This document shows positions 1,152 to 61,013 of a DNA stretch of 64,000 bases, piece by piece. Below the pieces are notes generated by a model, which was given only the letters and a program-made list of their open reading frames with translations, was not told where the DNA came from and did no database searches. This stretch comes from Flavobacteriales bacterium (GTDB lineage Bacteria; Bacteroidota; Bacteroidia; Flavobacteriales_F; PHOS-HE28). Within the stretch, counting starts at the first letter, position 1, and each line of letters starts with the position of its first letter. The stretch spans positions 3,116-67,115 of the forward strand of contig JBGTAJ010000110.1 of NCBI GenBank assembly GCA_041749915.1, read 5' to 3'. The position numbers and the translations under genes were made by a program.

Positions 1152-2129
1152 ATGAACAGCATGACCAAGATCCATCCCGAGCAACGCATCATATTCCTGG
1201 GAACACCTGAGTTCGCAGTGGGCACCTTGAACGCACTGGTCTCGGCAGGGATGAACGTGGTGGCCGTGGTCACTGCGCCGGATCGTCCGGCCGGGCGGGG
1301 ATTGACCATGCGCATGTCCGCTGTAAAACTGCGTGCACTGGAGCTCGGTCTTCCGGTGCTGCAACCGGAACGCTTGAAGGCCCCTGAGTTCCTTGCTGAA
1401 CTGGCGGCGTTCGATGCGACCGTACAGGTGGTGGTGGCCTTCCGCATGCTGCCAGAAGCGGTGTGGGACCGACCGGCACTCGGAACCATCAACCTGCATG
1501 CATCCTTATTGCCGCAGTACCGCGGCGCCGCACCGATCAACTGGGCCATCATCAATGGCGAAAGCGTTTCCGGCGTAACCACCTTCCGCATCCAGCAGGT
1601 CATCGATACCGGAGACCTCCTCCTACAGGAACGCATGGCCATCGGTCCGGATGAAACGGCGGGTGAACTGCATGATCGGATGATGACCGTCGGCGCCACA
1701 CTCATGGTCCGCACCCTGACCGGTCTCTTTGAAGGAACACTGACGGCGCATCCCCAGGAGAGCAACGGTGAACTGCGAGAGGCACCTAAGTTGACGTCCT
1801 TGACAGGTATGATGGACCCCGATACGTCGGCGCGAAGGTTGCATGACCTGGTGCGTGGGCTCAGTCCTTATCCGGCCGCGTGGTGCATGTGGCAACAAGC
1901 CGGAAAACCGCCGATCAAGATGAAGGTCTTCCGGACCCGACATACAGAGGAAGCTTCCGGCGGTGTGACCGGCGCGATCCGCATCGTTGGCGACCGATTG
2001 CTGCTCGCCTGCTCCGATCATTGGCTGGAGTTGCTGGACGTGCAACCCGAAGGACGCAAGCGCATGCTGGCCGCCGACCTCATCCGCGGTCTGCAGCAAC
2101 GGGATGGCATACGGGTGGTCGTGGAGTGA
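1152..2129 (+). CDS. fmt: methionyl-tRNA formyltransferase
   Basis: IIFLGTPEFAV..., VVTAPDRPAGRG, and INLHASLLPQYRGAAPINWAIINGE are the classic Fmt N-terminal formyltransferase signature, followed by the C-terminal domain. Confidence 0.92.
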   Translation: MNSMTKIHPEQRIIFLGTPEFAVGTLNALVSAGMNVVAVVTAPDRPAGRGLTMRMSAVKLRALELGLPVLQPERLKAPEFLAELAAFDATVQVVVAFRMLPEAVWDRPALGTINLHASLLPQYRGAAPINWAIINGESVSGVTTFRIQQVIDTGDLLLQERMAIGPDETAGELHDRMMTVGATLMVRTLTGLFEGTLTAHPQESNGELREAPKLTSLTGMMDPDTSARRLHDLVRGLSPYPAAWCMWQQAGKPPIKMKVFRTRHTEEASGGVTGAIRIVGDRLLLACSDHWLELLDVQPEGRKRMLAADLIRGLQQRDGIRVVVE

Positions 2130-2709: not shown

Positions 2710-3384
2710 ATGACCGACGAACGACTGTACGAACAGCTCAGCGAGTTCATCTCCGATAACAAGCGCGCACTCTTCGACCGCCTTGCCCCCCTGCGCACAC
2801 GACACATCACCGTGGTGTTGGAGGACATTTACCAGGCGCACAACGCGAGTGCCGTGGTTCGGACGGCCGACCTGCTCGGCATACAGGACATGCACATCAT
2901 CGAGAACCGGAACAAGTACACGGTCAATCCCGACGTCACCCTGGGGTCATCAAAATGGGTGAACATGCACCGGCACCGTGAGGGCGATGACAACACCCTG
3001 AGATGCATGCAGCAGCTCAAACAACAGGGATACCAGATCGTGGTGACCTCACCGCGCGCAGCGGATGTGACGCCCGGCAATATCGACCTCGAACGCCCCA
3101 TGGCCTTCTGCTTCGGAACGGAACTCACCGGGGCGAGCGACGTCCTCATGGAACACGCAGATATGCATCTGCGCATACCGATGTACGGATTCACGGAGAG
3201 CTACAACATCTCGGTATCGGCAGCGATCGTGCTGTACACCGTGATGGAACGTCTGCGCGCGAGCGCGGTGCAATGGCAGTTGTCGGACGACGATCGCAAC
3301 GCATTGAAGTTGGAGTGGGCGCGCAAGGTGGTGCACAGTGCAGCGCATCTTGAGGCACGCTTCCGCGCCAATGATCGTTCGTAA
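2710..3384 (+). CDS. trmH: SpoU/TrmH family RNA 2'-O-methyltransferase (tRNA G18 type)
   Basis: ITVVLEDIYQAHNASAVVRTADLLGIQDMHII, FGTELTGASD and IPMYGFTESYNISVSAAIVLY are SpoU motifs 1-3. The start is taken at MTDERL. Confidence 0.8.
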   Translation: MTDERLYEQLSEFISDNKRALFDRLAPLRTRHITVVLEDIYQAHNASAVVRTADLLGIQDMHIIENRNKYTVNPDVTLGSSKWVNMHRHREGDDNTLRCMQQLKQQGYQIVVTSPRAADVTPGNIDLERPMAFCFGTELTGASDVLMEHADMHLRIPMYGFTESYNISVSAAIVLYTVMERLRASAVQWQLSDDDRNALKLEWARKVVHSAAHLEARFRANDRS

Positions 3385-3672
3385 TGAACACGTCGCGTCA
3401 TGTGATCAACAGCTTGTGCGCATGGCATGCAACACTCCGCTGAGATCACTCTGCATGATCGTCGACACATCACATCGTCAACTCGCGCGACACTCTGCAC
3501 ACCTCGCGCAGCAAGGCTTTCAGAGCATCGCTACATCACTGCATCAACACTTCATGCGTTGCACATCACACGTGATGTGTTGGTGAAGCATGAGGAGAAT
3601 GTGCCATGGTTATTGACACGGACCGGTTGACAATTGAAACATGCGCAACGTCGTCCGCGTATCACCACCCAG

Positions 3673-3680: not shown

Positions 3681-3705
3681 GACCAAACCCTTAACACTCC
3701 AGACA

Positions 3706-3990
3706 ATGGGAAAAGGTGATATGAAAACGAAGAAAGGAAAGCGTACTGCAGGTAGCACTGGTAAAGCCCGTCCGGCAAAGCGCGTAGCCGCTGCCAAGAA
3801 GGCGACCGCCAAGAAAGCTGCGCCGAAGAAGGCTGCCGCCAAGAAGGCTGCTCCCAAAAAGGCTACGGCTAAGAAGGCTGCCCCCAAGAAGGCTGCTGCC
3901 AAGAAGGCCGCACCGAAGAAGGCTGCTGCTCCGAAGAAGGCCACTGCAAAGAAGGCCGCTCCGAAGAAAGCCGCTGCCAAGAAGAAGTAA
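3706..3990 (+). CDS. Thx-like ribosomal protein N-terminus fused to a histone H1-like (A/P)KKA repeat tail
   Basis: MGKGDMKTKKGKRTAGSTGKARPAKR parallels Thermus Thx [25 protein letters not shown], recalled from memory. It is followed by about 13 pentapeptide A-x-A-K-K repeats. Confidence 0.7.
   Translation: MGKGDMKTKKGKRTAGSTGKARPAKRVAAAKKATAKKAAPKKAAAKKAAPKKATAKKAAPKKAAAKKAAPKKAAAPKKATAKKAAPKKAAAKKK
3781..3987 (+). repeat. 15-nt periodic coding repeat (gcc aag aag gct gcN ...)
   Basis: A visible 15-nt periodicity encodes AAKKA/APKKA units inside the CDS above. Confidence 0.8.
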
Positions 3991-4063: not shown

Positions 4064-4708
4064 TCATGGTTGAAGCCGCATGCGCAACCATGTCCCGTCG
4101 TTCATGTGTTCAAAGACCAGCCGATCATGAAGACGACTGGCACGCCCCTGCCAAAATTCAATGCGCACCGGACGTACACGGTAGCCCCCCCAATGCAAGG
4201 GCCGCGGCACCACTCCATCAGCGAAGCGTTCCTTCCATCGTTCGAATCGCTGTTCCAACTGTTCCCTGTTCTCCACAACACGACTTTGGTCGCTGCTCCA
4301 TGCACCGATGCGACTCTCCAGTGGCCGTGATGCGAAGTAGGCATCGGACTCGGCGTCGCTCACCATTTCCACTCGTCCTTCCACGCGTACCTGGCGTTCC
4401 AATCCTGGCCAGAAGAAGACCAGCGCCGCGCGTGGATCCCGCTCGATGTCCATCGCCTTCCGGCTATTGTGGTTCGAGTAGAACACGAAGCCATTGATGT
4501 CGAACGAACGCAGCAATACGATGCGTGAACTGATGGTGTATGCTCCCAAGGTGGAGAGATTCATGGCGTGCGGTTCGGGCAGTCCGGCATGTTCCGCATC
4601 CTCCAACCAAGCGCCGAACAGGGCGATGGGATCATCTCCCGCCTGGCTCTCTGTCAACTCTCCCTGTGTGTATTCCTTTCGATGATGTACGTGGCGTGGA
4701 TCGCTCAT
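4064..4708 (-). CDS. pdxH: pyridoxamine 5'-phosphate oxidase
   Basis: RIVLLRSFDINGFVFYSNHNSRKA, ALVFFWPGLERQVRVEG and the C-terminal IEFWQGRASRLHDR are PdxH signatures. Confidence 0.92.
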   Translation of the reverse strand: MSDPRHVHHRKEYTQGELTESQAGDDPIALFGAWLEDAEHAGLPEPHAMNLSTLGAYTISSRIVLLRSFDINGFVFYSNHNSRKAMDIERDPRAALVFFWPGLERQVRVEGRVEMVSDAESDAYFASRPLESRIGAWSSDQSRVVENREQLEQRFERWKERFADGVVPRPLHWGGYRVRPVRIEFWQGRASRLHDRLVFEHMNDGTWLRMRLQP

Positions 4709-4817
4709 GGAACCTCTGGTCTTTGAGCAACGAAGTTATCCCATCACACATCATCACATGCCGCACATTTGAGCGATCTTGCACCGTGGCAACGGTGTTC
4801 CACTGTGCGTATGTACC

Positions 4818-46918: not shown

Positions 46919-47494
46919 ATGAGCGACCTGTCCGACGATGAGTTGCTGGCCCTCTTCCGTAAGGAGGACTCCCGCCACTATGCGTTCAACCTGCTGATGC
47001 GCAAGTACCAGCGCAGGCTCTACACCTTCATCCGGCGGATGGTGTGCGACCACGACGAGGCCGAGGATGTGCTGCAGGACACCTTCATCAAGGTGTGGCA
47101 GAAACTGGGCGATTTCCGGGGCGATGCGCAGCTGTACAGTTGGATCTACCGCATCGCCCACAACCAGTGCCTGGACCACCTGCGCCGCCTGAAGCGGGGC
47201 CTGTTCGTGAGCCATGATGCCGTGTCGGAGCGGCTCTGCGGTACGCTGGACAGCACGGAACACTTCACCGGGGACCACATCCATCGGCAGCTGCAACGGG
47301 CCATCATGACCCTGCCGGACAAGCAGCGGGCGGTGTTCCACATGAAGTACTTCGATGAGCTCAAGTACGAGGAGATCAGCACCATCACGGGCACCAGCGT
47401 AGGAGCCCTGAAGAGCAGCTACCATATCGCGGTCAAAAAGATCGAAGCCTGGCTCACCGCCGATCAAACCAAAGCGACCGACCCAACGTCCTAG
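46919..47494 (+). CDS. ECF (sigma-70 family) RNA polymerase sigma factor
   Basis: Region 2 reads AEDVLQDTFIKVWQKLGDFRGDAQLYSWIYRIAHNQCLDHLRR. Region 4 reads LPDKQRAVFHMKYFDELKYEEISTITGTSVGALKSSYHIAVKKI. Confidence 0.9.
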   Translation: MSDLSDDELLALFRKEDSRHYAFNLLMRKYQRRLYTFIRRMVCDHDEAEDVLQDTFIKVWQKLGDFRGDAQLYSWIYRIAHNQCLDHLRRLKRGLFVSHDAVSERLCGTLDSTEHFTGDHIHRQLQRAIMTLPDKQRAVFHMKYFDELKYEEISTITGTSVGALKSSYHIAVKKIEAWLTADQTKATDPTS

Positions 47495-47504
47495 TATCGA
47501 CACC

Positions 47505-47963
47505 ATGCAGAACGGATCATATCACGACGAACTGGACGAGGCCCCCATCCTGCGTTCGCTGCACCGTGAAGCACCCTTCGTCACGCCTCCCCGGTTCTTC
47601 GATGAGCTTCCTGCACGGGTACAACAGCGGATACTGGAGGAGGCCCGTCCGCGCCCCGCAGCGATATGGTGGACACACGTTCGGATACCTGCAGCTTCCC
47701 TGCTGGCCTTGGTGCTGGTGGCCGCCATCGCGTGGTGGCCACGTTTCGGAACCGTTGAAACGCCGAACGCCATGATCGCGGACATGGAACTACAAGGGAT
47801 CGAGCTTGACCGTCTGGACCTCGATGCGCATGACCTGATGGCGGCCTACGGTGAGGACCCCGACCTGTACTCGGAGGTCGGCCACGGGCTCAACTCCGAT
47901 GAACTGACCGCCTATCTCCTGAATGAAGACCTCTCACTCGACCAACTCATCGAGGAACTATGA
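47505..47963 (+). CDS. putative anti-sigma factor (single-pass membrane protein)
   Basis: The gene immediately follows the ECF sigma gene. It has one TM segment (AASLLALVLVAAIAWW). There is no sequence motif, so the call rests on context. Confidence 0.45.
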   Translation: MQNGSYHDELDEAPILRSLHREAPFVTPPRFFDELPARVQQRILEEARPRPAAIWWTHVRIPAASLLALVLVAAIAWWPRFGTVETPNAMIADMELQGIELDRLDLDAHDLMAAYGEDPDLYSEVGHGLNSDELTAYLLNEDLSLDQLIEEL

Positions 47964-48457
47964 AACAGCTTCTTTCCTTCCTGCTTCCCATGCTGCTCGT
48001 GACATCTGCGCTCACCGTGCACGCGCAGGGCGATGACATGCCCCCATTGAACGATGAGCGCATGCGGGAGATCAAGGCCCAGAAAACAGCCTACCTCACC
48101 ACCAAGCTTGGCCTCACTTCGGAGGAGGCGCAGCGCTTCTGGCCCATCTACAATGAGTATGACGAAGCCCGTGAAACGATCCGCAAGCAGATGCGTGGCC
48201 TGATGCGCCGAAAACAGGACCAGGACAAGCCCCTGACCGATGCCGAGGCCGGGCAGCGATTGACCAAGGGACTCGAGCTCCGCCAGCAGGAACTGGACAT
48301 CGAGCGCACGTACAAGGACCGCTTCGTCAAGTCCATCGGGGCCCTCCGTACGCTGGAGCTTGTGCGGGCCGAGCACGACTTCAACCGGGAGGTGCTGCGT
48401 CGACTGCGCGAACGCTCCGAAGAGCGCGGTGGAGGACGCCCTGTGCCAAAGCAATGA
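47960..48457 (+). CDS. periplasmic Spy/CpxP-like helical protein
   Basis: The signal peptide is MKQLLSFLLPMLLVTSALTVHAQ, followed by a charged helical body. ATGA overlaps occur on both sides. Confidence 0.5.
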   Translation: MKQLLSFLLPMLLVTSALTVHAQGDDMPPLNDERMREIKAQKTAYLTTKLGLTSEEAQRFWPIYNEYDEARETIRKQMRGLMRRKQDQDKPLTDAEAGQRLTKGLELRQQELDIERTYKDRFVKSIGALRTLELVRAEHDFNREVLRRLRERSEERGGGRPVPKQ

Positions 48458-49686: not shown

Positions 49687-49892
49687 TCCTCAGCATTCTA
49701 TACATCCCTGAACTGGCCCCCCACACTTACACGGGGCCGGAAAACCGCCGCTTCCAACGCAACCACCGATGGTCCGGTATACCCCTCCGTTCCTCGACCC
49801 GAATGGGGGCGAACGAACCAATGAATGGTCTTCGGCCTTACTTTAGAGGCCGGCAAATTGAACAAACCGATCCCCTTGCCCCGGAGCACACC

Positions 49893-52652
49893 ATGAAACA
49901 ACTGATACTCGGATTAGCCATCGCCCTGCCGTTCGCTGCCAACGCACAGCAACTGCACTGGTGCCAAGCAGATGAGATGCGCCAGCGTCTGATCGAAAGC
50001 GACCCGACCTACTTGGAGCGGGAAGCTGCCTATGAAGCGGAGATCGTCGAACTGCTCCGCAACAGTGCGGTACAGCGTGACGATGAGACGGTGTACATCA
50101 TCCCCGTTGTCTTCCACGTCATCCATGCTGGTGGCCAGGAGAACCTAACGGATGAACAGATCTTCGCCGAAGTGCAGCAGCTGAACGATGATTACCGCAA
50201 GCTGAACTCTGACCTCGTCGATGCAGTGCCCTATTACCAGCAGATCGCTGGCGACGTAAAGGTGGAGTTCCGCCTGGCCAAGATAGACCCCGATGGGAAC
50301 TGCACAACCGGTATCGACCGGGTTCGCACTCCCGAGACCCTGGTAGGGAACGATGGCTCCAAGTACAACTACTGGCCCCGCAACAAGTACATGAACATCT
50401 GGACAGTTCGCCAGATGGGTGGTGGTGCGGCAGGCTATGCCTACTACCCGAACGCGCTGACCGGCATTTCGCAGGTCGCCGATGGGGTGATCATGCTCAG
50501 CTCTGACGTCGGAGTGAACGGTAATACCCTGACCCACGAGCTGGGCCACTCGTTCAACCTCGCACACACCTGGGGGGCTAACGTGGCCGGTATTGAAGGT
50601 GTGCCCGGATCCAACAACATGGTCACGGTATGCAGCGACGATGGTGTGGAGGATGTGCCACTGACCAAGGGCCACAAGCCCGGTTACTGTCGCCGATTCG
50701 ACCATACCTGCACCATGCAGAATTTCCGTGCATCGGTGATGAACTTCGACGGAATGGTGAACGGTGGCGGAACGACCGACCCCAGCACGATCCCGACCGA
50801 ACTGGACACCTTCTATAATGAGACCGCGGTGGTCGTGACCCCCTTTACCGCTGTCGGTGTGGGTTCCACCAATCTCGCGGACGGTGCATTCGGGTTCAGC
50901 AACTGGGGCACAGGTGCCGTGGATGGCGAGACGGAGTTCGTCAACCTGACCGGAACCCAGGACGTGGCCAAGTATTACGAGTTCAGTATCGACCCGACCC
51001 TGCCATACTCACATCGTCCGGAGTTCATCACGTTCAAGGCTCGGAGGACTGCAAATGGTCCGCGCACATTCGCTGTTCGTGCCAGTCGGACGGGTGCTTT
51101 CGGATCGAACTTCACGGCGTTGAACTCGACGACCGACCCGAATCTCCAGATCCAGGGCCTTACGACCTTCTTCATCAAGAACGATGTGGAGGACGTGATC
51201 AACGGTTGCCGGGTGAACCTGACCGGTCTCTTCTCCAGCGGCGGTATCCTGAACCCGGAGACCGATGAGACCGTGACCATCCGCATCTATGCATGGAACG
51301 CTGAAGAGGAAGGTGGTGCCTTTTTCATTGATTCCCTCGTGTTGGGTGGGACTTACGGACGTATCGAGAACGTGGAGAACTATATGGAATACTCCTATTG
51401 CTCCAAGCAGTTCACCGAAGGCCAGGTGGCCCGCTGGCGCGCCGCTGCAACCTCCGATGTCGGGGACCGTCGTTCCCTCTGGCAGGCTGAGAACCTGATC
51501 GCAACGGGAACCAACGATGGCTATGTGCCAACGTGCCCGCCGAACGCAGATTTCTACGCAGCCCTGTCCACCAACAATATCCCCTATCCTTCCACGGCCT
51601 GTGCCGGAGCATCCATCACCTTCCGTGACAATAGCTCGGGCGGTGCGGCCACCTCATGGAACTGGACCTTCCAAGATGGTACGCCGGCTACCAGTGCACA
51701 GCGGAACCCCACCGTATCCTTCTCGGGTGCGGGCTGGAAGTCGGTGACCCTTACCGCCACCAACGAACATGGTTCCAGCACCAAGGTTCAGGAGTTTGCC
51801 GTGAACATCAGCGAACAGTCCACGAACATGGCTCCGTTCTTTGAGAGCTTCGAGGACAACGAGAACCTCTGGCCTTTCCACGCAGAGAACTATGACAACA
51901 ACCACACCTTCTTCTCGCTATACACGGAAGGCGGTTTCTCCGGGAATGCATGCGCCATGCTGAACAGCGGCGCCCGCAACCAACTAGACCTCATCGATCC
52001 CACCAACGATCTGGACATCGACGACCTGGTATCACCGAGCGTGAACCTCTCCGGTCTCTCGGGTGTGCAGCTGTCCTTCCGTTATTCTTACAGCACCAGT
52101 ACCACTTCGATCGATAACGTCACCGAAAAGCTGGAGGTGGACCGTTCGCTGGACTGCGGCCGTACTTGGATCAATGCTTCAGAGATCACTGGAGAGGAAC
52201 TCGTGACCAATGGCAACAATCCTGAAATGCCACCCACGGCATGGCGCCTGAAGACCATCAGCCTACCGAACTCGACGCTGGGTCCGAACAACCGTTTCCG
52301 CTTCCGTTTCACCAGCAGCGAGTTCTCGAACAACTTCTTCATTGATGACATCAACTTCGGAACTCCGGTGGGGATCATCGACCTGAACGGCAATGTGGTG
52401 TTCATGAACCTCTACCCGAACCCCACCAATGACCACTTCACACTGCAGGTGACGGGCATGGAGGCTTCGAGCACGGAGATCGCCATCACGGACATCCGCG
52501 GTGCAGTGGTCTACCAGAACGTGTACCAGCCCACTGGCGGCGCGCTGATCGAGCTCAGCGGACGAGGCCTAGGCCTCAGCGATGGCATGTACCTTCTGCG
52601 CGCAGCGAACAGCGCCGGCAGCAGTGTGACGAAACTGATCGTCGGACAATAG
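49893..52652 (+). CDS. T9SS-secreted M43 (cytophagalysin/pappalysin-like) zinc metalloprotease with PKD domain
   Basis: The signal peptide is MKQLILGLAIALPFAANAQ. IPVVFHVIH and THELGHSFNLAHTW are present. A PKD-like segment reads ITFRDNSSGGAATSWNWTFQDGTP. The C-terminal sorting domain is NLYPNPTNDHFTLQV...GMYLLRA. Confidence 0.85.
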   Translation: MKQLILGLAIALPFAANAQQLHWCQADEMRQRLIESDPTYLEREAAYEAEIVELLRNSAVQRDDETVYIIPVVFHVIHAGGQENLTDEQIFAEVQQLNDDYRKLNSDLVDAVPYYQQIAGDVKVEFRLAKIDPDGNCTTGIDRVRTPETLVGNDGSKYNYWPRNKYMNIWTVRQMGGGAAGYAYYPNALTGISQVADGVIMLSSDVGVNGNTLTHELGHSFNLAHTWGANVAGIEGVPGSNNMVTVCSDDGVEDVPLTKGHKPGYCRRFDHTCTMQNFRASVMNFDGMVNGGGTTDPSTIPTELDTFYNETAVVVTPFTAVGVGSTNLADGAFGFSNWGTGAVDGETEFVNLTGTQDVAKYYEFSIDPTLPYSHRPEFITFKARRTANGPRTFAVRASRTGAFGSNFTALNSTTDPNLQIQGLTTFFIKNDVEDVINGCRVNLTGLFSSGGILNPETDETVTIRIYAWNAEEEGGAFFIDSLVLGGTYGRIENVENYMEYSYCSKQFTEGQVARWRAAATSDVGDRRSLWQAENLIATGTNDGYVPTCPPNADFYAALSTNNIPYPSTACAGASITFRDNSSGGAATSWNWTFQDGTPATSAQRNPTVSFSGAGWKSVTLTATNEHGSSTKVQEFAVNISEQSTNMAPFFESFEDNENLWPFHAENYDNNHTFFSLYTEGGFSGNACAMLNSGARNQLDLIDPTNDLDIDDLVSPSVNLSGLSGVQLSFRYSYSTSTTSIDNVTEKLEVDRSLDCGRTWINASEITGEELVTNGNNPEMPPTAWRLKTISLPNSTLGPNNRFRFRFTSSEFSNNFFIDDINFGTPVGIIDLNGNVVFMNLYPNPTNDHFTLQVTGMEASSTEIAITDIRGAVVYQNVYQPTGGALIELSGRGLGLSDGMYLLRAANSAGSSVTKLIVGQ

Positions 52653-52670
52653 TCCGGGACCTCATTGATC

Positions 52671-52709
52671 AGGAAGCCCCCGCCGATCAGGCGGGGGCTT
52701 CCTGTTTTT
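52671..52709 (+). terminator. intrinsic terminator after the M43 protease gene
   Basis: AGGAAGCCCCCGCC-gatca-GGCGGGGGCTTCCT forms a 14-bp stem followed by GTTTTT. Confidence 0.75.
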
Positions 52710-52716
52710 CGTCCCT

Positions 52717-57937: not shown

Positions 57938-58513
57938 TCATTTCCGCTCGCTCAGGCGTCGGCTCAGGGAATCCACCAGGTCCTGGTTGTACTGCGGTGA
58001 AAGTAGCAGGTCATCGCCATTCCGAAGGCGTAACAGCACCAGATCATGCCTGGCATTGGGCAGGCGATCGATGACCGTTCTTCCAAGACCTAGCGTAAAA
58101 CTGGTCAACCCGATGTCCACGGTACAGAACCGGGTGAAGGCTCTCGCCCGGCGCCGCAGATCGCGCCATCCCTTGGTATGGATGAGGGAACGCTGACGGA
58201 TGTATTCCCGTGCTCCGGCCCGATCGATCAAGCTGGCATCAGCGATCTCTTCGAAGGGTATGTCCAAGCGGTCCGAGCGGCTGATGAGACTCAGCTTTTC
58301 TCCATTGATCCGGTACGTGCTGCGACCGCTCATGTCCCGGTACAGCGCAACACCGAGTCCGATAGCCAGAAGGGCCAGCAAGGCGATCAAGGTGGCGAAG
58401 CGCCCGGTGGAAGCCGCAACGATGAGACCGATGAGGACAGCAAAGGGCGACATCCACACTACCATGAGGGTGTTGTGCCATTGCCGACGTGTCCTGAAAC
58501 GTGTTTCACCCAT
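57938..58513 (-). CDS. hypothetical membrane protein, possibly bacterial PH-domain type
   Basis: There are two TM helices (MSPFAVLIGLIVAAS, ATLIALLALLAIGLGVAL) and then a soluble domain. The start is uncertain, either ATG at 58513 or TTG at 58558. Confidence 0.45.
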   Translation of the reverse strand: MGETRFRTRRQWHNTLMVVWMSPFAVLIGLIVAASTGRFATLIALLALLAIGLGVALYRDMSGRSTYRINGEKLSLISRSDRLDIPFEEIADASLIDRAGAREYIRQRSLIHTKGWRDLRRRARAFTRFCTVDIGLTSFTLGLGRTVIDRLPNARHDLVLLRLRNGDDLLLSPQYNQDLVDSLSRRLSERK

Positions 58514-58571
58514 GGCCCCGATCACAAAGCTATTGACCACCAGTGGCCATTCGGACAATAGCGGCGTGAAG

Positions 58572-58602
58572 TAAAAGAGGCGGCCCTTTGGGGGCCGCCT
58601 CT
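58572..58602 (-). terminator. intrinsic terminator downstream of tRNA-Leu
   Basis: The minus strand reads AGAGGCGGCCC-ccaaa-GGGCCGCCTCT followed by TTTAC. The stem is 11 bp. Confidence 0.7.
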
Positions 58603-58605
58603 GGG

Positions 58606-58689
58606 TACCGAAGGCGGGACTCGAACCCGCACAACCTTTCGGTTACACGCCCCTGAAACGTGCGCGTCTACCAATTCCGCCACTTCGGT
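58606..58689 (-). tRNA. tRNA-Leu (CAG), class II with long variable arm
   Basis: The hand-folded sequence is ACCGAAG-TG-GCG-GAATTGGTAGA-CGC-G-CACGT-TTCAGGG-GCGTG-TAACCGAAAGGTTGT-GCGGG-TTCGAGT-CCCGC-CTTCGGT-A. The 3' CCA is not fully encoded (CCC follows). Confidence 0.9.
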
Positions 58690-58710
58690 AAGTGGAACAT
58701 TTCCTTCGCA

Positions 58711-58725
58711 GGGGCCGCAAATATA
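58711..58725 (-). promoter_or_regulatory. tRNA promoter: -7 box TATATTTG plus CGGCCCC discriminator
   Basis: The minus strand reads TATATTTGCGGCCCC, 21 nt upstream of the tRNA-Leu 5' end. It is identical to 7961-7975. Confidence 0.55.
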
Positions 58726-58800
58726 GCAGATCATCGGAACGTCCCCCCCTGCCTTCGAAAAAGTGTCGCCCCATGAGTCTTAACGCACCAACAGCGAACC

Positions 58801-58933
58801 ACGGAAAGCACGAAGCCCCCATCCCGAATGAACGGGACGAGGGCGACGTGACTCTTCAGACTGACCTTTGAACTACTTGGACATACCCTGTAACGGGATA
58901 TCCGTGGGAAGGTTCCACCACCGGGATCTTTTT
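58801..58933 (+). ncRNA. candidate small RNA, copy 1 (family unknown)
   Basis: The conserved core folds as a long hairpin. Its elements are CACG/CGTG, a 2x2 AA/GA loop, GCCC/GGGC, a 3x3 loop, and TCCCG-aatgaa-CGGGA. A small hairpin CCC-tgtaac-GGG follows. A terminal hairpin spans 58900-58927 and is followed by T5 (58929-58933). The 5' end is not defined. Confidence 0.35.
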
Positions 58934-58989
58934 CCTCCAGAGCGACGGCAACACCTGTTCTTCCAGGACATGACCGCTTGCACAGGGGT

Positions 58990-59123
58990 ACGGAAAGCAC
59001 GAAGCCCCCATCCCGAATGAACGGGACGAGGGCGACGTGACTCTTCAGACTGACCTTTGAACTACTTGGACACACCCTGTAACGGGAGGTCGAATGGAAG
59101 GTTCCACGATTCCGATCTTTTTT
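58990..59123 (+). ncRNA. candidate small RNA, copy 2 (family unknown)
   Basis: The core is the same as copy 1. The terminal hairpin at 59088-59117 has a different stem sequence but the same loop (AAGGTT) and is followed by T6 (59118-59123). One G-U pair favours the plus strand. Confidence 0.35.
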
Positions 59124-59564
59124 CCTCCGGATCGACAACAGTACCTGTTTTTCCAAGGTCCGACCGCGAGCACCGGGGTACGGAAAGCACGAAGCCCCCA
59201 TCCCAAAAGAACGGGACGAGGGCGGCGTGACTCTTCAGACCGACCTCCGATCCAGTTGGACAGACCTTGGCATGGCGCCCCATCCGCAAGGTCCCATCGT
59301 CAGTTGACCATGTGGAAACAAGGGGTGCGACCACCCCTGTCCATACCAAGGATGCCCCAAGGCAGGATCGTCTAACACGAACCGACACCGCGAGGGACGC
59401 CGCAACCGGAACGCACCAGGCACAGGTACGGGGTGGCATGGTCTTGGCGAACGGAAGACTCTCCCCTCGGAGGGGTATGCTGTAGTTGTCCTGACAAGGG
59501 CTCTGTGGTCCTCATACCAGTCCACGAGAACCTTTCCCCTGCACTCTCGCGTTCAACTTCCCGC

Positions 59565-61013
59565 GTGCTTTTCAACTCCATCGATTTCGCCCTTTTCCTA
59601 CCGATCGTCTTCCTGCTCTATTGGAAGGTGTTCGGAGGCGACCTTCGCACGCAGAACGCGTTCCTTCTTGCAGCCAGCATGGTGTTCTACGGCTGGTGGG
59701 ATTGGCGATTTCTGGGGCTGGTGTTCCTGAGCTCGGTGATCGACTGGTCGGTGGGCATATCCCTGGACCGCACGGAAGCCCCAACCCGCCGAAAGTGGCT
59801 GCTGGCGGCGAGCATGCTGGCCAACCTGGGCATCCTGGGCGTGTTCAAGTACTACGATTTTTTCATCACCAACTTCAATGAGGCCTTCACCCTGATGGGC
59901 CTTCCCATCGGCATCCGCACACTGGACGTGGTGCTTCCGGTGGGCATCAGTTTCTACACCTTCCAGACAATGAGCTACAGCATCGACGTGTATCGCCGCC
60001 AGATCGAGGCGACACGCGACCCGGTCGCTTTCTCCGCCTACGTCCTGTTCTTCCCCCAGCTCGTGGCAGGGCCCATTGAACGGGCCAGTTCCTTGATGCC
60101 ACAGTTCAAACGCGAACGGGCCTTCGTCATCGCTGATGCCTGGGACGGACTGCGCCAGATCCTCTGGGGACTGTTCAAGAAAGTACTGGTCGCCGACACC
60201 TGCGCCAAGTATGTGGACCAGATCTACTCCGCACCCGAGCTGATGAGCGGAAGCACCCTGGCGCTGGGTACCGCGCTGTTCGCCTTCCAGATCTACGGCG
60301 ACTTCAGCGGCTATTCCGACATCGCCATCGGTACAGCCCGTCTCTTCGGCTTCAACCTGATGCAGAACTTCGCATATCCCTATTTCTCCCGTGACATGGC
60401 GGAGTTCTGGCGCCGTTGGCACATCAGCCTAAGCACCTGGTTCCGTGATTATGTATACATACCATTGGGCGGCAGCCGGGGCGGTAAGTTCTTCCAGGTG
60501 CGGAATGCCATGATCATCTTCGTGGTGAGCGGTTTCTGGCACGGCGCTTCGTGGAATTTCCTGATCTGGGGTTTCCTCAATGGCCTCTATTTCCTGCCCC
60601 TGATCCTGGCGAAACGAAACCGGCAAAACCTGGGCATCGTGGCGGAAGGGAAGCACCTGCCATCACTGCGAGAGGCCGGCGGCATGCTGAGCACCTTCCT
60701 CCTGGCCTGCATGGCCTGGGTCTTCTTCCGCGCCAACGACCTGCCGGACGCCCTATCGGTGTATGAGGGGATCTTCTCCAAAAGCCTGTTCACCGTGCCG
60801 GACCACCTGTTCTCCAAGGACCTGAAGGTGGTGTTCCTCAGCCTGGCGGTGCTGTTCACCTTGGAGTGGGTGGCCCGTGGTCGACAGTACGGACTGCAGT
60901 TGGACGGTATCGCGCCGCGGTGGGTGCGCCGGACCATCTACTACGGGGTGGTGGCACTGATCATCGCCTACGCGCCGATCACCACTGCATCGTTCATCTA
61001 TTTCCAGTTCTGA
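59565..61013 (+). CDS. MBOAT family O-acyltransferase (AlgI/DltB-like)
   Basis: (M)LFNSIDFALFLPIVFLLYW starts at a GTG. GISFYTFQTMSYSIDVYR, FPQLVAGPIERA, and the FWRRWHISLSTWFRDYVYIPLGG and GFWHGASWNF motifs (catalytic His region) are present. Confidence 0.88.
   Translation: MLFNSIDFALFLPIVFLLYWKVFGGDLRTQNAFLLAASMVFYGWWDWRFLGLVFLSSVIDWSVGISLDRTEAPTRRKWLLAASMLANLGILGVFKYYDFFITNFNEAFTLMGLPIGIRTLDVVLPVGISFYTFQTMSYSIDVYRRQIEATRDPVAFSAYVLFFPQLVAGPIERASSLMPQFKRERAFVIADAWDGLRQILWGLFKKVLVADTCAKYVDQIYSAPELMSGSTLALGTALFAFQIYGDFSGYSDIAIGTARLFGFNLMQNFAYPYFSRDMAEFWRRWHISLSTWFRDYVYIPLGGSRGGKFFQVRNAMIIFVVSGFWHGASWNFLIWGFLNGLYFLPLILAKRNRQNLGIVAEGKHLPSLREAGGMLSTFLLACMAWVFFRANDLPDALSVYEGIFSKSLFTVPDHLFSKDLKVVFLSLAVLFTLEWVARGRQYGLQLDGIAPRWVRRTIYYGVVALIIAYAPITTASFIYFQF

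Follow-up and report, generated by a model that had tools for sequence, protein, structure and literature searches.

The small RNAs (sRNAs) controlled by sigma-E, an extracytoplasmic function (ECF) sigma factor, namely MicA, RybB and MicL of enterobacteria (PMC1804206, PMC4102768) and VrrA of Vibrio, are transcribed from ECF-type promoters, carry a conserved single-stranded 5' region followed by a terminator hairpin, and form the repressing non-coding arm of an extracytoplasmic stress regulon. ECF-linked sRNAs known so far are almost all proteobacterial, and post-transcriptional regulation in Bacteroidota is poorly charted. Intergenic sRNAs of this phylum have been catalogued by differential RNA sequencing (dRNA-seq) in B. 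thetaiotaomicron and F. psychrophilum, with TAnnTTTG primary promoters in both species and a CGT-box ECF-type promoter class recognised in F. psychrophilum (PMC7366714, PMC9723704). A keyword search of the literature returned, in the text portions it covered, no sRNA tied to an ECF promoter in Bacteroidota and no YkuK-associated RNA. Here, a 64,000-nt stretch of a Flavobacteriales genome (contig JBGTAJ010000110.1, positions 3,116 to 67,115 of the forward strand; called the window, with position 1 as its first letter) was analysed for a tandem repeat that lies upstream of a tRNA-Leu(CAG) gene. The repeat probably represents three separate genes, two intact and one decaying, that encode the same small RNA (about 83 nt) on the minus strand, co-directional with the tRNA gene and apparently driven, in the intact copies, by ECF-type promoters.

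The features of the sigma-E-dependent sRNAs listed above have putative counterparts at this locus, the repressing role being a presumed one; the differences are that no sequence or structural homology and no Rfam match was found, and that the present family belongs to another phylum, occurs in tandem copies and has an invariant block of 37 nt. PrrF1/PrrF2, Qrr1-5 and OmrA/OmrB resemble the array in being head-to-tail duplicated sRNA genes with their own promoter and terminator (putative ones in the array), in which the body is conserved and the spacers drift; their regulators are Fur, sigma-54/LuxO and OmpR, whereas an ECF-type promoter is seen here, and copy number here changes from one to three between close relatives, with one copy decaying. 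No sequence relationship to the dRNA-seq sRNAs of Bacteroidota was detected, as judged by way of Rfam 15, which holds no match.

A preliminary description, made from the letters of the window, had proposed tandem sRNA genes on the plus strand, each ending in an imperfect hairpin with an AAGGTT loop and a T5 or T6 run, and had likened their layout to that of PrrF1/2 or the Qrr RNAs. The tandem array (58801-59246) had a period of 189, 2.4 copies and 87% matches (score 673, Tandem Repeats Finder on the window), and two 25-32-nt core probes matched exactly three times each in the 64-kb window against none expected from shuffles. Copies 1 and 2 were identical over 83 nt (58801-58883 and 58990-59072), had a single mismatch across 98 nt and were 73% identical in the remaining unit, and copy 3 differed at nine positions within the 83-nt core. 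The array occupies a gap of 874 nt between the end of the tRNA-Leu gene (58690) and the likely GTG start of an MBOAT gene (59565). On recount, the three head-to-tail copies, the 83- and 98-nt identities and the nine differences were thus exactly as described, and the drift (given as about 75%) and the gap (875 bp) nearly so. The sole long open reading frame (ORF), of 156 aa (58731-59201, minus strand), had no Pfam match and exists only because of the repeats, in line with the earlier view that no frame is credible. Likewise, the element had not been matched to a known RNA family, and in Rfam 15 no match overlapped 58700-59560 either at gathering thresholds or at E<=10; the window and the related loci L001-L007 yielded tRNA only. 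The array features, all on the minus strand, were as follows.

58801-58883, minus strand: sRNA copy 1, predicted body of about 83 nt, 5'-UGUCCAAGUAGUUCAAAGGUCAGUCUGAAGAGUCACG-hairpin-CUUUCCGU (102.1 bits with covariance model R1)
58809-58850, minus strand: hairpin P1 of copy 1, terminator-like, with a GC-rich helix of 12 bp that has two G-U pairs; the U-rich tail CUUUCCGU follows it
58890-58895, minus strand: -10 box CGTTAC of copy 1, with CGTT ending 8 nt before UGUCC
58911-58916, minus strand: -35 box GGAACC of copy 1, on the other strand the AAGGTT loop
58929-58933, minus strand: A5 tract upstream of the -35 box of copy 1, previously read as the T5 run
58990-59072, minus strand: sRNA copy 2, body identical to copy 1 (102.6 bits with model R1)
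59079-59105, minus strand: promoter of copy 2, with -10 box CGTTAC at 59079-59084 and -35 box GGAACC at 59100-59105
59118-59123, minus strand: A6 tract of copy 2, previously read as the T6 run
59180-59262, minus strand: sRNA copy 3, degenerate, P1 retained (85.5 bits with model R1)
59269-59296, minus strand: what is left of the promoter of copy 3, with -10 CATGCC (in place of CGTTNA) and -35 TGGGACC (in place of G-N-AACC)

Homologs were collected from seven GTDB genomes, found by a gapped pattern anchored on the hairpin flanks, from 41 metagenome contigs, found by a 20-nt pattern from the unpaired block (41 matches), and from four loci reached through a neighbouring protein, which together gave 56 copies in 52 loci, 48 of them distinct. 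All loci were high-GC Flavobacteriales metagenome-assembled genomes (MAGs) or metagenome contigs, the clade being known only from metagenomes (activated sludge, freshwater); the seven GTDB genomes were Flavobacteriales MAGs of 50-65% G+C with one locus apiece. Copies were counted with a hidden Markov model and later with a covariance model: most loci had one, L003 and L005 had two and the window had three. The same 20-nt pattern gave 0 matches in viral contigs, no match was found in phage and plasmid collections, and no further copy of the repeat was present in the window outside the array. With one locus per genome in the seven GTDB genomes and none elsewhere in the window, the core does not behave as a dispersed satellite or a repeat of the miniature inverted-repeat transposable element type. 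The homolog comparison supports the earlier proposal of tandem paralogous small-RNA genes from a family outside Rfam with a core under strong selection.

The strand was assigned from hairpin P1, which is built from an outer helix CACG/CGUG, a 2x2 internal loop and a GC-rich inner helix; the first position of the internal loop covaries (U·U, A-U, G-C). On the minus strand, P1 forms a continuous helix of 12-14 bp in which each sequence has about two G-U pairs, at positions that shift, and these pairs are C·A mismatches on the plus strand. The minus strand folded better in 41 of 42 homologs (mean -29.6 versus -24.5 kcal/mol), and for the 83-mer of the window the energies were -35.5 kcal/mol (z -4.85) on the minus and -26.7 (z -3.48) on the plus strand. 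After realignment with a covariance model (53 copies, 41 distinct), the inner helix of P1 was 92% paired in register and 33-53% paired when the partner was slid, three columns alternated C-G/U-G or G-U/G-C, and six pairs were changed on both sides (49 cells); the covariation score was reached by 0 of 500 shuffles. When the same alignment of inner P1 was read both ways, the minus strand had 367 Watson-Crick, 87 G-U and 38 mismatched cells and the plus strand 367, 13 and 112, respectively. A 6-bp hairpin, P2 (UUCARA/UCUGAA), was supported by RNAalifold alongside P1. The long core hairpin reported earlier is therefore real, with compensatory changes in the homologs, and its strand is the minus strand. 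This evidence places the small-RNA gene family on the minus strand, opposite to the first proposal, and the strand was decidable from the G-U/C·A asymmetry alone.

Because of this asymmetry and the compensatory changes, the element is taken as a folded single strand and not as a DNA-level element. A recombination site, a protein-binding array or a mobile repeat would suit a tandem repeat beside a tRNA gene, and in one relative an integrase island stands there with both tRNA and element missing; the presence of a single locus in each genome, 5' of the tRNA, and the absence of the element from viral contigs, phages and plasmids and of any dispersed copies, make an explanation of this kind highly improbable.

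Plus-strand sRNAs of about 130 nt ending in a hairpin and T-run at 58933 and 59123, which in relatives would derive from the 3' untranslated region (UTR) of a ykuK-like gene, are very unlikely. Copies 1 and 2 of the window do have an imperfect hairpin followed by T5 or T6, P2 has G-U pairs on the plus strand only (29 cells), and a plus-strand ykuK-like (PF04308) gene ends at or inside the element in 28 loci. The presumed terminator segment, however, had no conserved structure across the 42 homologs (RNAalifold, columns 101-173), its single-sequence folds shared no common architecture and no strand preference (20 better on plus, 21 on minus), and a terminator scan found no plus-strand terminator at these hairpins, so that intrinsic terminators maintained there by compensatory change are not supported. 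The 112 mismatched cells of P1 on the plus strand against 38 on the minus strand point the same way. Loci without ykuK showed no conserved promoter-like sequence upstream on the plus strand, L014 and L037 leave only about 26 nt between the element and the TATATTTG box of the tRNA, the ends of the ykuK ORF within the element differ in place and frame, and two conserved islands of fixed geometry would be left unexplained. An assignment to the 3' UTR of the ykuK-like gene was also rejected for the family, as half of the loci lack the gene and the ORF ends at varied points and frames inside the element. A plus-strand four-helix model (P1-P4), built by eye, was discarded since P3 and P4 had neither a consistent fold nor strand asymmetry.

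The two islands, G-N-AACC(T/C)(T/C) and CGTT-N-A on the minus strand, were constant inside otherwise unconserved sequence. Over 46 distinct copies, the -35 box had G in 46, AAC in 46 and the next C in 45, followed by T-rich positions and flanked by unconserved sequence; the -10 box, anchored on UGUCC, had C in 44, G in 44, T in 46, T in 40 and A in 44. The gap from AAC to CGT was 16 nt in 9 copies, 17 nt in 28 and 18 nt in 9, and CGTT was separated from the invariant block UGUCCAAGUAG (UGUCC) by 8 nt in 44 of the 46 copies and by 9 nt in the other 2. The modal AAC-CGT gap is about 1 nt longer than in the sigma-W promoter of B. subtilis, TGAAAC-N16-CGTA. An A/T-rich patch was present across homologs at 14-19 nt upstream of AAC and corresponds, in the window, to the A5 or A6 tract; the A5 tract may be an UP-like A/T-rich patch. 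AAC in the -35 and CGT in the -10 element are hallmarks of ECF-sigma promoters, whose elements are given as 14-17 bp apart (PMC5758882), and the CGT box is taken as an ECF signature in Flavobacterium psychrophilum (PMC9723704). With an AAC-type -35 box, a CGT-type -10 box and a narrow fixed geometry, the islands apparently constitute an ECF-sigma-type promoter, as judged by motif and geometry. What had been taken for a terminator loop AAGGTT with a T5 or T6 run thus reads as the -35 box (GGAACCTT), variable spacer and upstream A-tract of an ECF-type promoter on the opposite strand, which is a caution for sequence-only reading: a 'conserved loop + T-run' can be a -35 box and A-tract of the other strand. 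Kissing or pseudoknot pairing of the AACG and GGTT islands, or with the P2 loop, showed no covariation by eye on the alignment and is unnecessary, since the islands read as promoter boxes.

The surroundings of the boxes agree with this arrangement. In L002, L004 and L049, the terminator of an upstream co-directional M49 peptidase gene is followed at once by the boxes and then by the RNA, and the position of the A-tract is taken by the U-tract of the upstream gene's terminator. This layout is as expected of a minus-strand gene that is complete in itself, and a plus-strand promoter would have no upstream sequence to occupy.

The identity of copies 1 and 2 breaks at the base before UGUCC and 8 nt past P1 and so coincides exactly with the predicted RNA, and the spacer between the promoter boxes has drifted while the RNA body has remained identical in the two copies. 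The predicted transcription start is the U of UGUCC (58883 in copy 1, 59072 in copy 2) or a base no more than about 2 nt away, and the predicted RNAs run from 58883 to 58801 and from 59072 to 58990 on the minus strand, in place of the plus-strand transcripts of about 130 nt. Among all copies, the only variation in the first 37 nt of the RNA is A/G at three positions; the segment is identical between loci whose neighbouring proteins share just 40-45% identity, and minus-strand folds leave it largely unpaired, as expected for a conserved and accessible seed. P1 with its U-rich tail most likely acts as an intrinsic terminator. In build, it resembles the intrinsic terminator of the gene ending at 52652, which was itself a weak match (23.9 bits) of the sRNA covariance model.

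52663-52713, plus strand: terminator of the gene for an M43 protein with a type IX secretion system (T9SS) sorting signal (49803-52652), CAGGAAGCCCCCGCC-GATC-AGGCGGGGGCTTCCTG followed by TTTTT

A gene unit would accordingly be composed, from 5' to 3', of an A/T-rich patch, a -35 box G-N-AACC(TT), a gap of 16-18 nt from AAC to CGT, a -10 box CGTT-N-A, a start at UGUCC, the 37-nt segment, P1 and a U-rich tail. The element is conserved, strand-specific and structured and has promoter geometry, and its most likely function, by analogy with MicA and RybB, is that of an ECF-controlled trans-acting sRNA. In the proposed mechanism, an ECF sigma factor would switch the genes on under envelope or other extracytoplasmic stress, the invariant and largely unpaired 5' segment would base-pair with one or more mRNAs, and tandem copies would raise the dose; the RNA would then serve an ECF regulon as its non-coding arm, in the way that MicA, RybB and MicL serve that of enterobacterial sigma-E. 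With its strong conservation, clear limits and ECF-type promoter, the putative sRNA could serve as an entry point to the non-coding part of a stress regulon, and the promoter motif can be used to find the remaining members of that regulon.

Several points weigh against this interpretation. Behind P1, the tail (CUUUCCGU, or UUCGUGCUUUC if taken from the inner helix on) makes a poor U-tract, and the terminator scan did not call it. P2 fits the plus strand better, the 29 G-U cells found there being A·C on the minus strand; this counter-signal rests on a single A/G column, which gives A·C on minus and G-U on plus in 28 of 41 sequences. A search of the window for perfect complements of 10 nt or more to the 5' segment gave a single 10-mer, where chance would give 2.9. 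Neither the ECF operon of the window (46919-48457) nor its Spy-like gene had a convincing box upstream that would match as an autoregulatory promoter. The transcript, its start site and its 3' end are all predictions. To our knowledge, Bacteroidota have no Hfq, and the analogy to MicA and RybB is therefore one of logic and not of machinery.

The ECF operon just mentioned is located about 11 kb from the array, begins 22 nt after a transketolase gene and encodes a 191-aa sigma factor (46919-47494, Sigma70_r2/r4_2), a 152-aa protein without a Pfam match, which is possibly an anti-sigma factor, and a 165-aa protein with a weak Metal_resist/Spy-like match. The same sigma factor is encoded about 11 kb from the sRNA in L008 and L037. 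Because this operon shows no matching promoter, no cognate sigma factor was assigned; a link between the promoter and the operon was considered and dropped, as the motif matches in L008 and L037 lie at non-homologous positions and are probably due to chance. The guide RNAs of dCas12f-sigmaE systems in Bacteroidota (PMC13472631) are similar in phylum, ECF context, length (85-105 nt), occasional tandem arrangement and stem-loop scaffold. They differ in being located directly downstream of an rpoE-dcas12f operon and in acting without promoter motifs at their targets (PMC13472631), and in the present RNA the conserved part is at the 5' end and the 3' tail is short. A dCas12f guide RNA was rejected, since the neighbours are tRNA-Leu, ykuK-like, M49 peptidase or MBOAT genes and the ECF operon of the window has no Cas12f-sized gene.

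The genes around the element were compared across the loci. Downstream of the array, the window has the following two features.

58602-58690, minus strand: tRNA-Leu(CAG), the conserved downstream neighbour on the same strand as the sRNA copies
58718-58725, minus strand: sigma-A-type -7 box TATATTTG of tRNA-Leu, reading GGGGSCGCAAATATA on the plus strand

The -7 box TATATTTG was kept in the loci examined, with the variant TATCTTTG in L045 and L047, and its conservation implies that the sigma-A -7 consensus of Bacteroidota is in use in these high-GC genomes. tRNA-Leu(CAG) adjoins the element in almost every locus with enough flank, within a conserved order of M23/LysM peptidase gene, 200-aa gene, tRNA-Leu and sRNA gene. 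For the 200-aa protein (57938-58558 in the window, minus strand, downstream of tRNA-Leu), the only Pfam match was one to DUF6232 below threshold; its homologs form about 120 clusters (P0001-P0120), and all of those with a source name come from Flavobacteriales MAGs. Through these homologs, more distant genomes with 40-45% protein identity were reached, and three of the distant loci carried the RNA, again before tRNA-Leu, with its 5' block unchanged and with the same promoter. In the fourth distant relative (L051:1-4000, L052), a phage-type integrase gene, a 497-aa gene and a D12 methyltransferase gene lie upstream of the 200-aa gene, and at the position of this island neither tRNA-Leu(CAG) nor the sRNA gene was detected. 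On the far (plus) side of the element, the neighbour varies (MBOAT, convergent M49 peptidase, RidA-like gene, ykuK and others), and therefore the element is not a leader or riboswitch of a gene on that side. In 28 loci, a gene for a 155-190-aa protein of PF04308 (RNase H-like, YkuK/DUF458) lies between tRNA and element on the plus strand; it is convergent with the sRNA gene and overlaps the 3' hairpin of the sRNA (for example L010:2059-2532; also L001, L011, L013, L016 and L022). Its ORF ends just before the element or at varied points and frames inside it, and the length of the C-terminal tail differs between loci. The window and about half of the loci have no ykuK-like gene, and the element is unchanged there.

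The co-directional and close arrangement of sRNA, tRNA-Leu and 200-aa gene, the weak U-tract after P1 and the antisense overlap of the 3' end with the 3' end of ykuK in 28 loci could also be explained by a minus-strand transcript that is not an independent trans-acting sRNA, either as an ECF-driven leader of tRNA-Leu(CAG) and the downstream gene or as a cis-antisense RNA to the ykuK-like gene. This is unlikely, given that tRNA-Leu has its own conserved TATATTTG promoter in the loci examined, that P1 resembles a local terminator, that the identity of copies 1 and 2 stops 8 nt past P1 and that each tandem copy has its own promoter and hairpin. A leader would, where ykuK is present, require 570 nt of antisense transcript to reach the tRNA, and the RNA is unchanged in the roughly half of loci that lack ykuK. 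Pairing with tRNA-Leu, or an origin from it, was rejected as well: only a 5-nt match, UUCAG/CUGAA, was seen by eye.

A different role for the same minus-strand small RNA would be the binding of a protein or a conserved cellular RNA, as a sponge, decoy or guide, possibly tied to the RNase H-like ykuK product. The 37 invariant nt exceed the usual seed and are identical where the neighbouring protein is 40-45% identical, a PF04308 RNase H-like gene is frequently adjacent and no mRNA target was seen in the window. We regard this as quite unlikely: half of the loci and the 64-kb window itself lack ykuK, the ykuK and sRNA genes are convergent and not co-oriented, any partner is hypothetical, and the 5' block varies only by A<->G at three positions, a change compatible with pairing to U. 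If the reading as ECF-controlled sRNA genes is extended, this would be the first ECF-sigma-controlled sRNA family in Bacteroidota, with the 37-nt segment frozen across a family-level clade by an equally invariant partner; such an extension is tentative. Such a partner might be a group of mRNAs for envelope proteins, a stable RNA or a protein dedicated to this RNA, and gene dosage would be tuned by tandem duplication and decay.

Copy 3 has lost both promoter boxes. It has six changes in the 5' block that is otherwise invariant in 47 other distinct copies, and in the close relative L005 the orthologous distal copy keeps GGAACC...CGTTAC. Promoter boxes and sequence constraint have been lost together, for which reason copy 3 is considered a decaying gene; the differences of copy 3, previously explained as variation of a seed or ligand-specific region, look like decay, with both boxes lost and invariant positions changed.

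Directly upstream of the decayed copy 3 promoter, a minus-strand hairpin, GGGGTGGTCGCACCCC followed by TTGTTTCC, is located at 59323-59338, and similar sequence was found at the same place in L005. A possible role is that of a terminator-like insulator that separates the sRNA array from the promoter region of the divergent MBOAT gene.

Among the other loci, only L012 has its tRNA-Leu(CAG) and sRNA genes (3327-3411 and 3697-3778) in convergent orientation, suggestive of a local inversion. A TAYCTTG box is located 8-10 nt before the ATG of the ykuK-like genes.

A motif of the same type precedes the MBOAT gene. In the window it reads AGAACC-N18-CGTTCA (59527-59567) and is divergent from the array; in L005 (about 2083-2121, minus strand) it reads GGAACC-N18-CGTTCA and in L044 (about 4698-4740) CGAACC-N17-CGTAGA. 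The motif begins 38-40 nt before the start codon, a distance that implies a near-leaderless MBOAT mRNA. Its recurrence suggests that promoters of this type are functional in the clade, and the divergent MBOAT and sRNA units may be co-regulated.

In L003 (6670-6700, plus strand), an 11-nt piece of the invariant 5' block (TCCAAGTAGTT) was found in opposite orientation; directly after it comes the ECF-like motif GGAACT-N..-CGTATA, some 125 nt ahead of the start of MBOAT, and the piece may be the remnant of an inverted copy.

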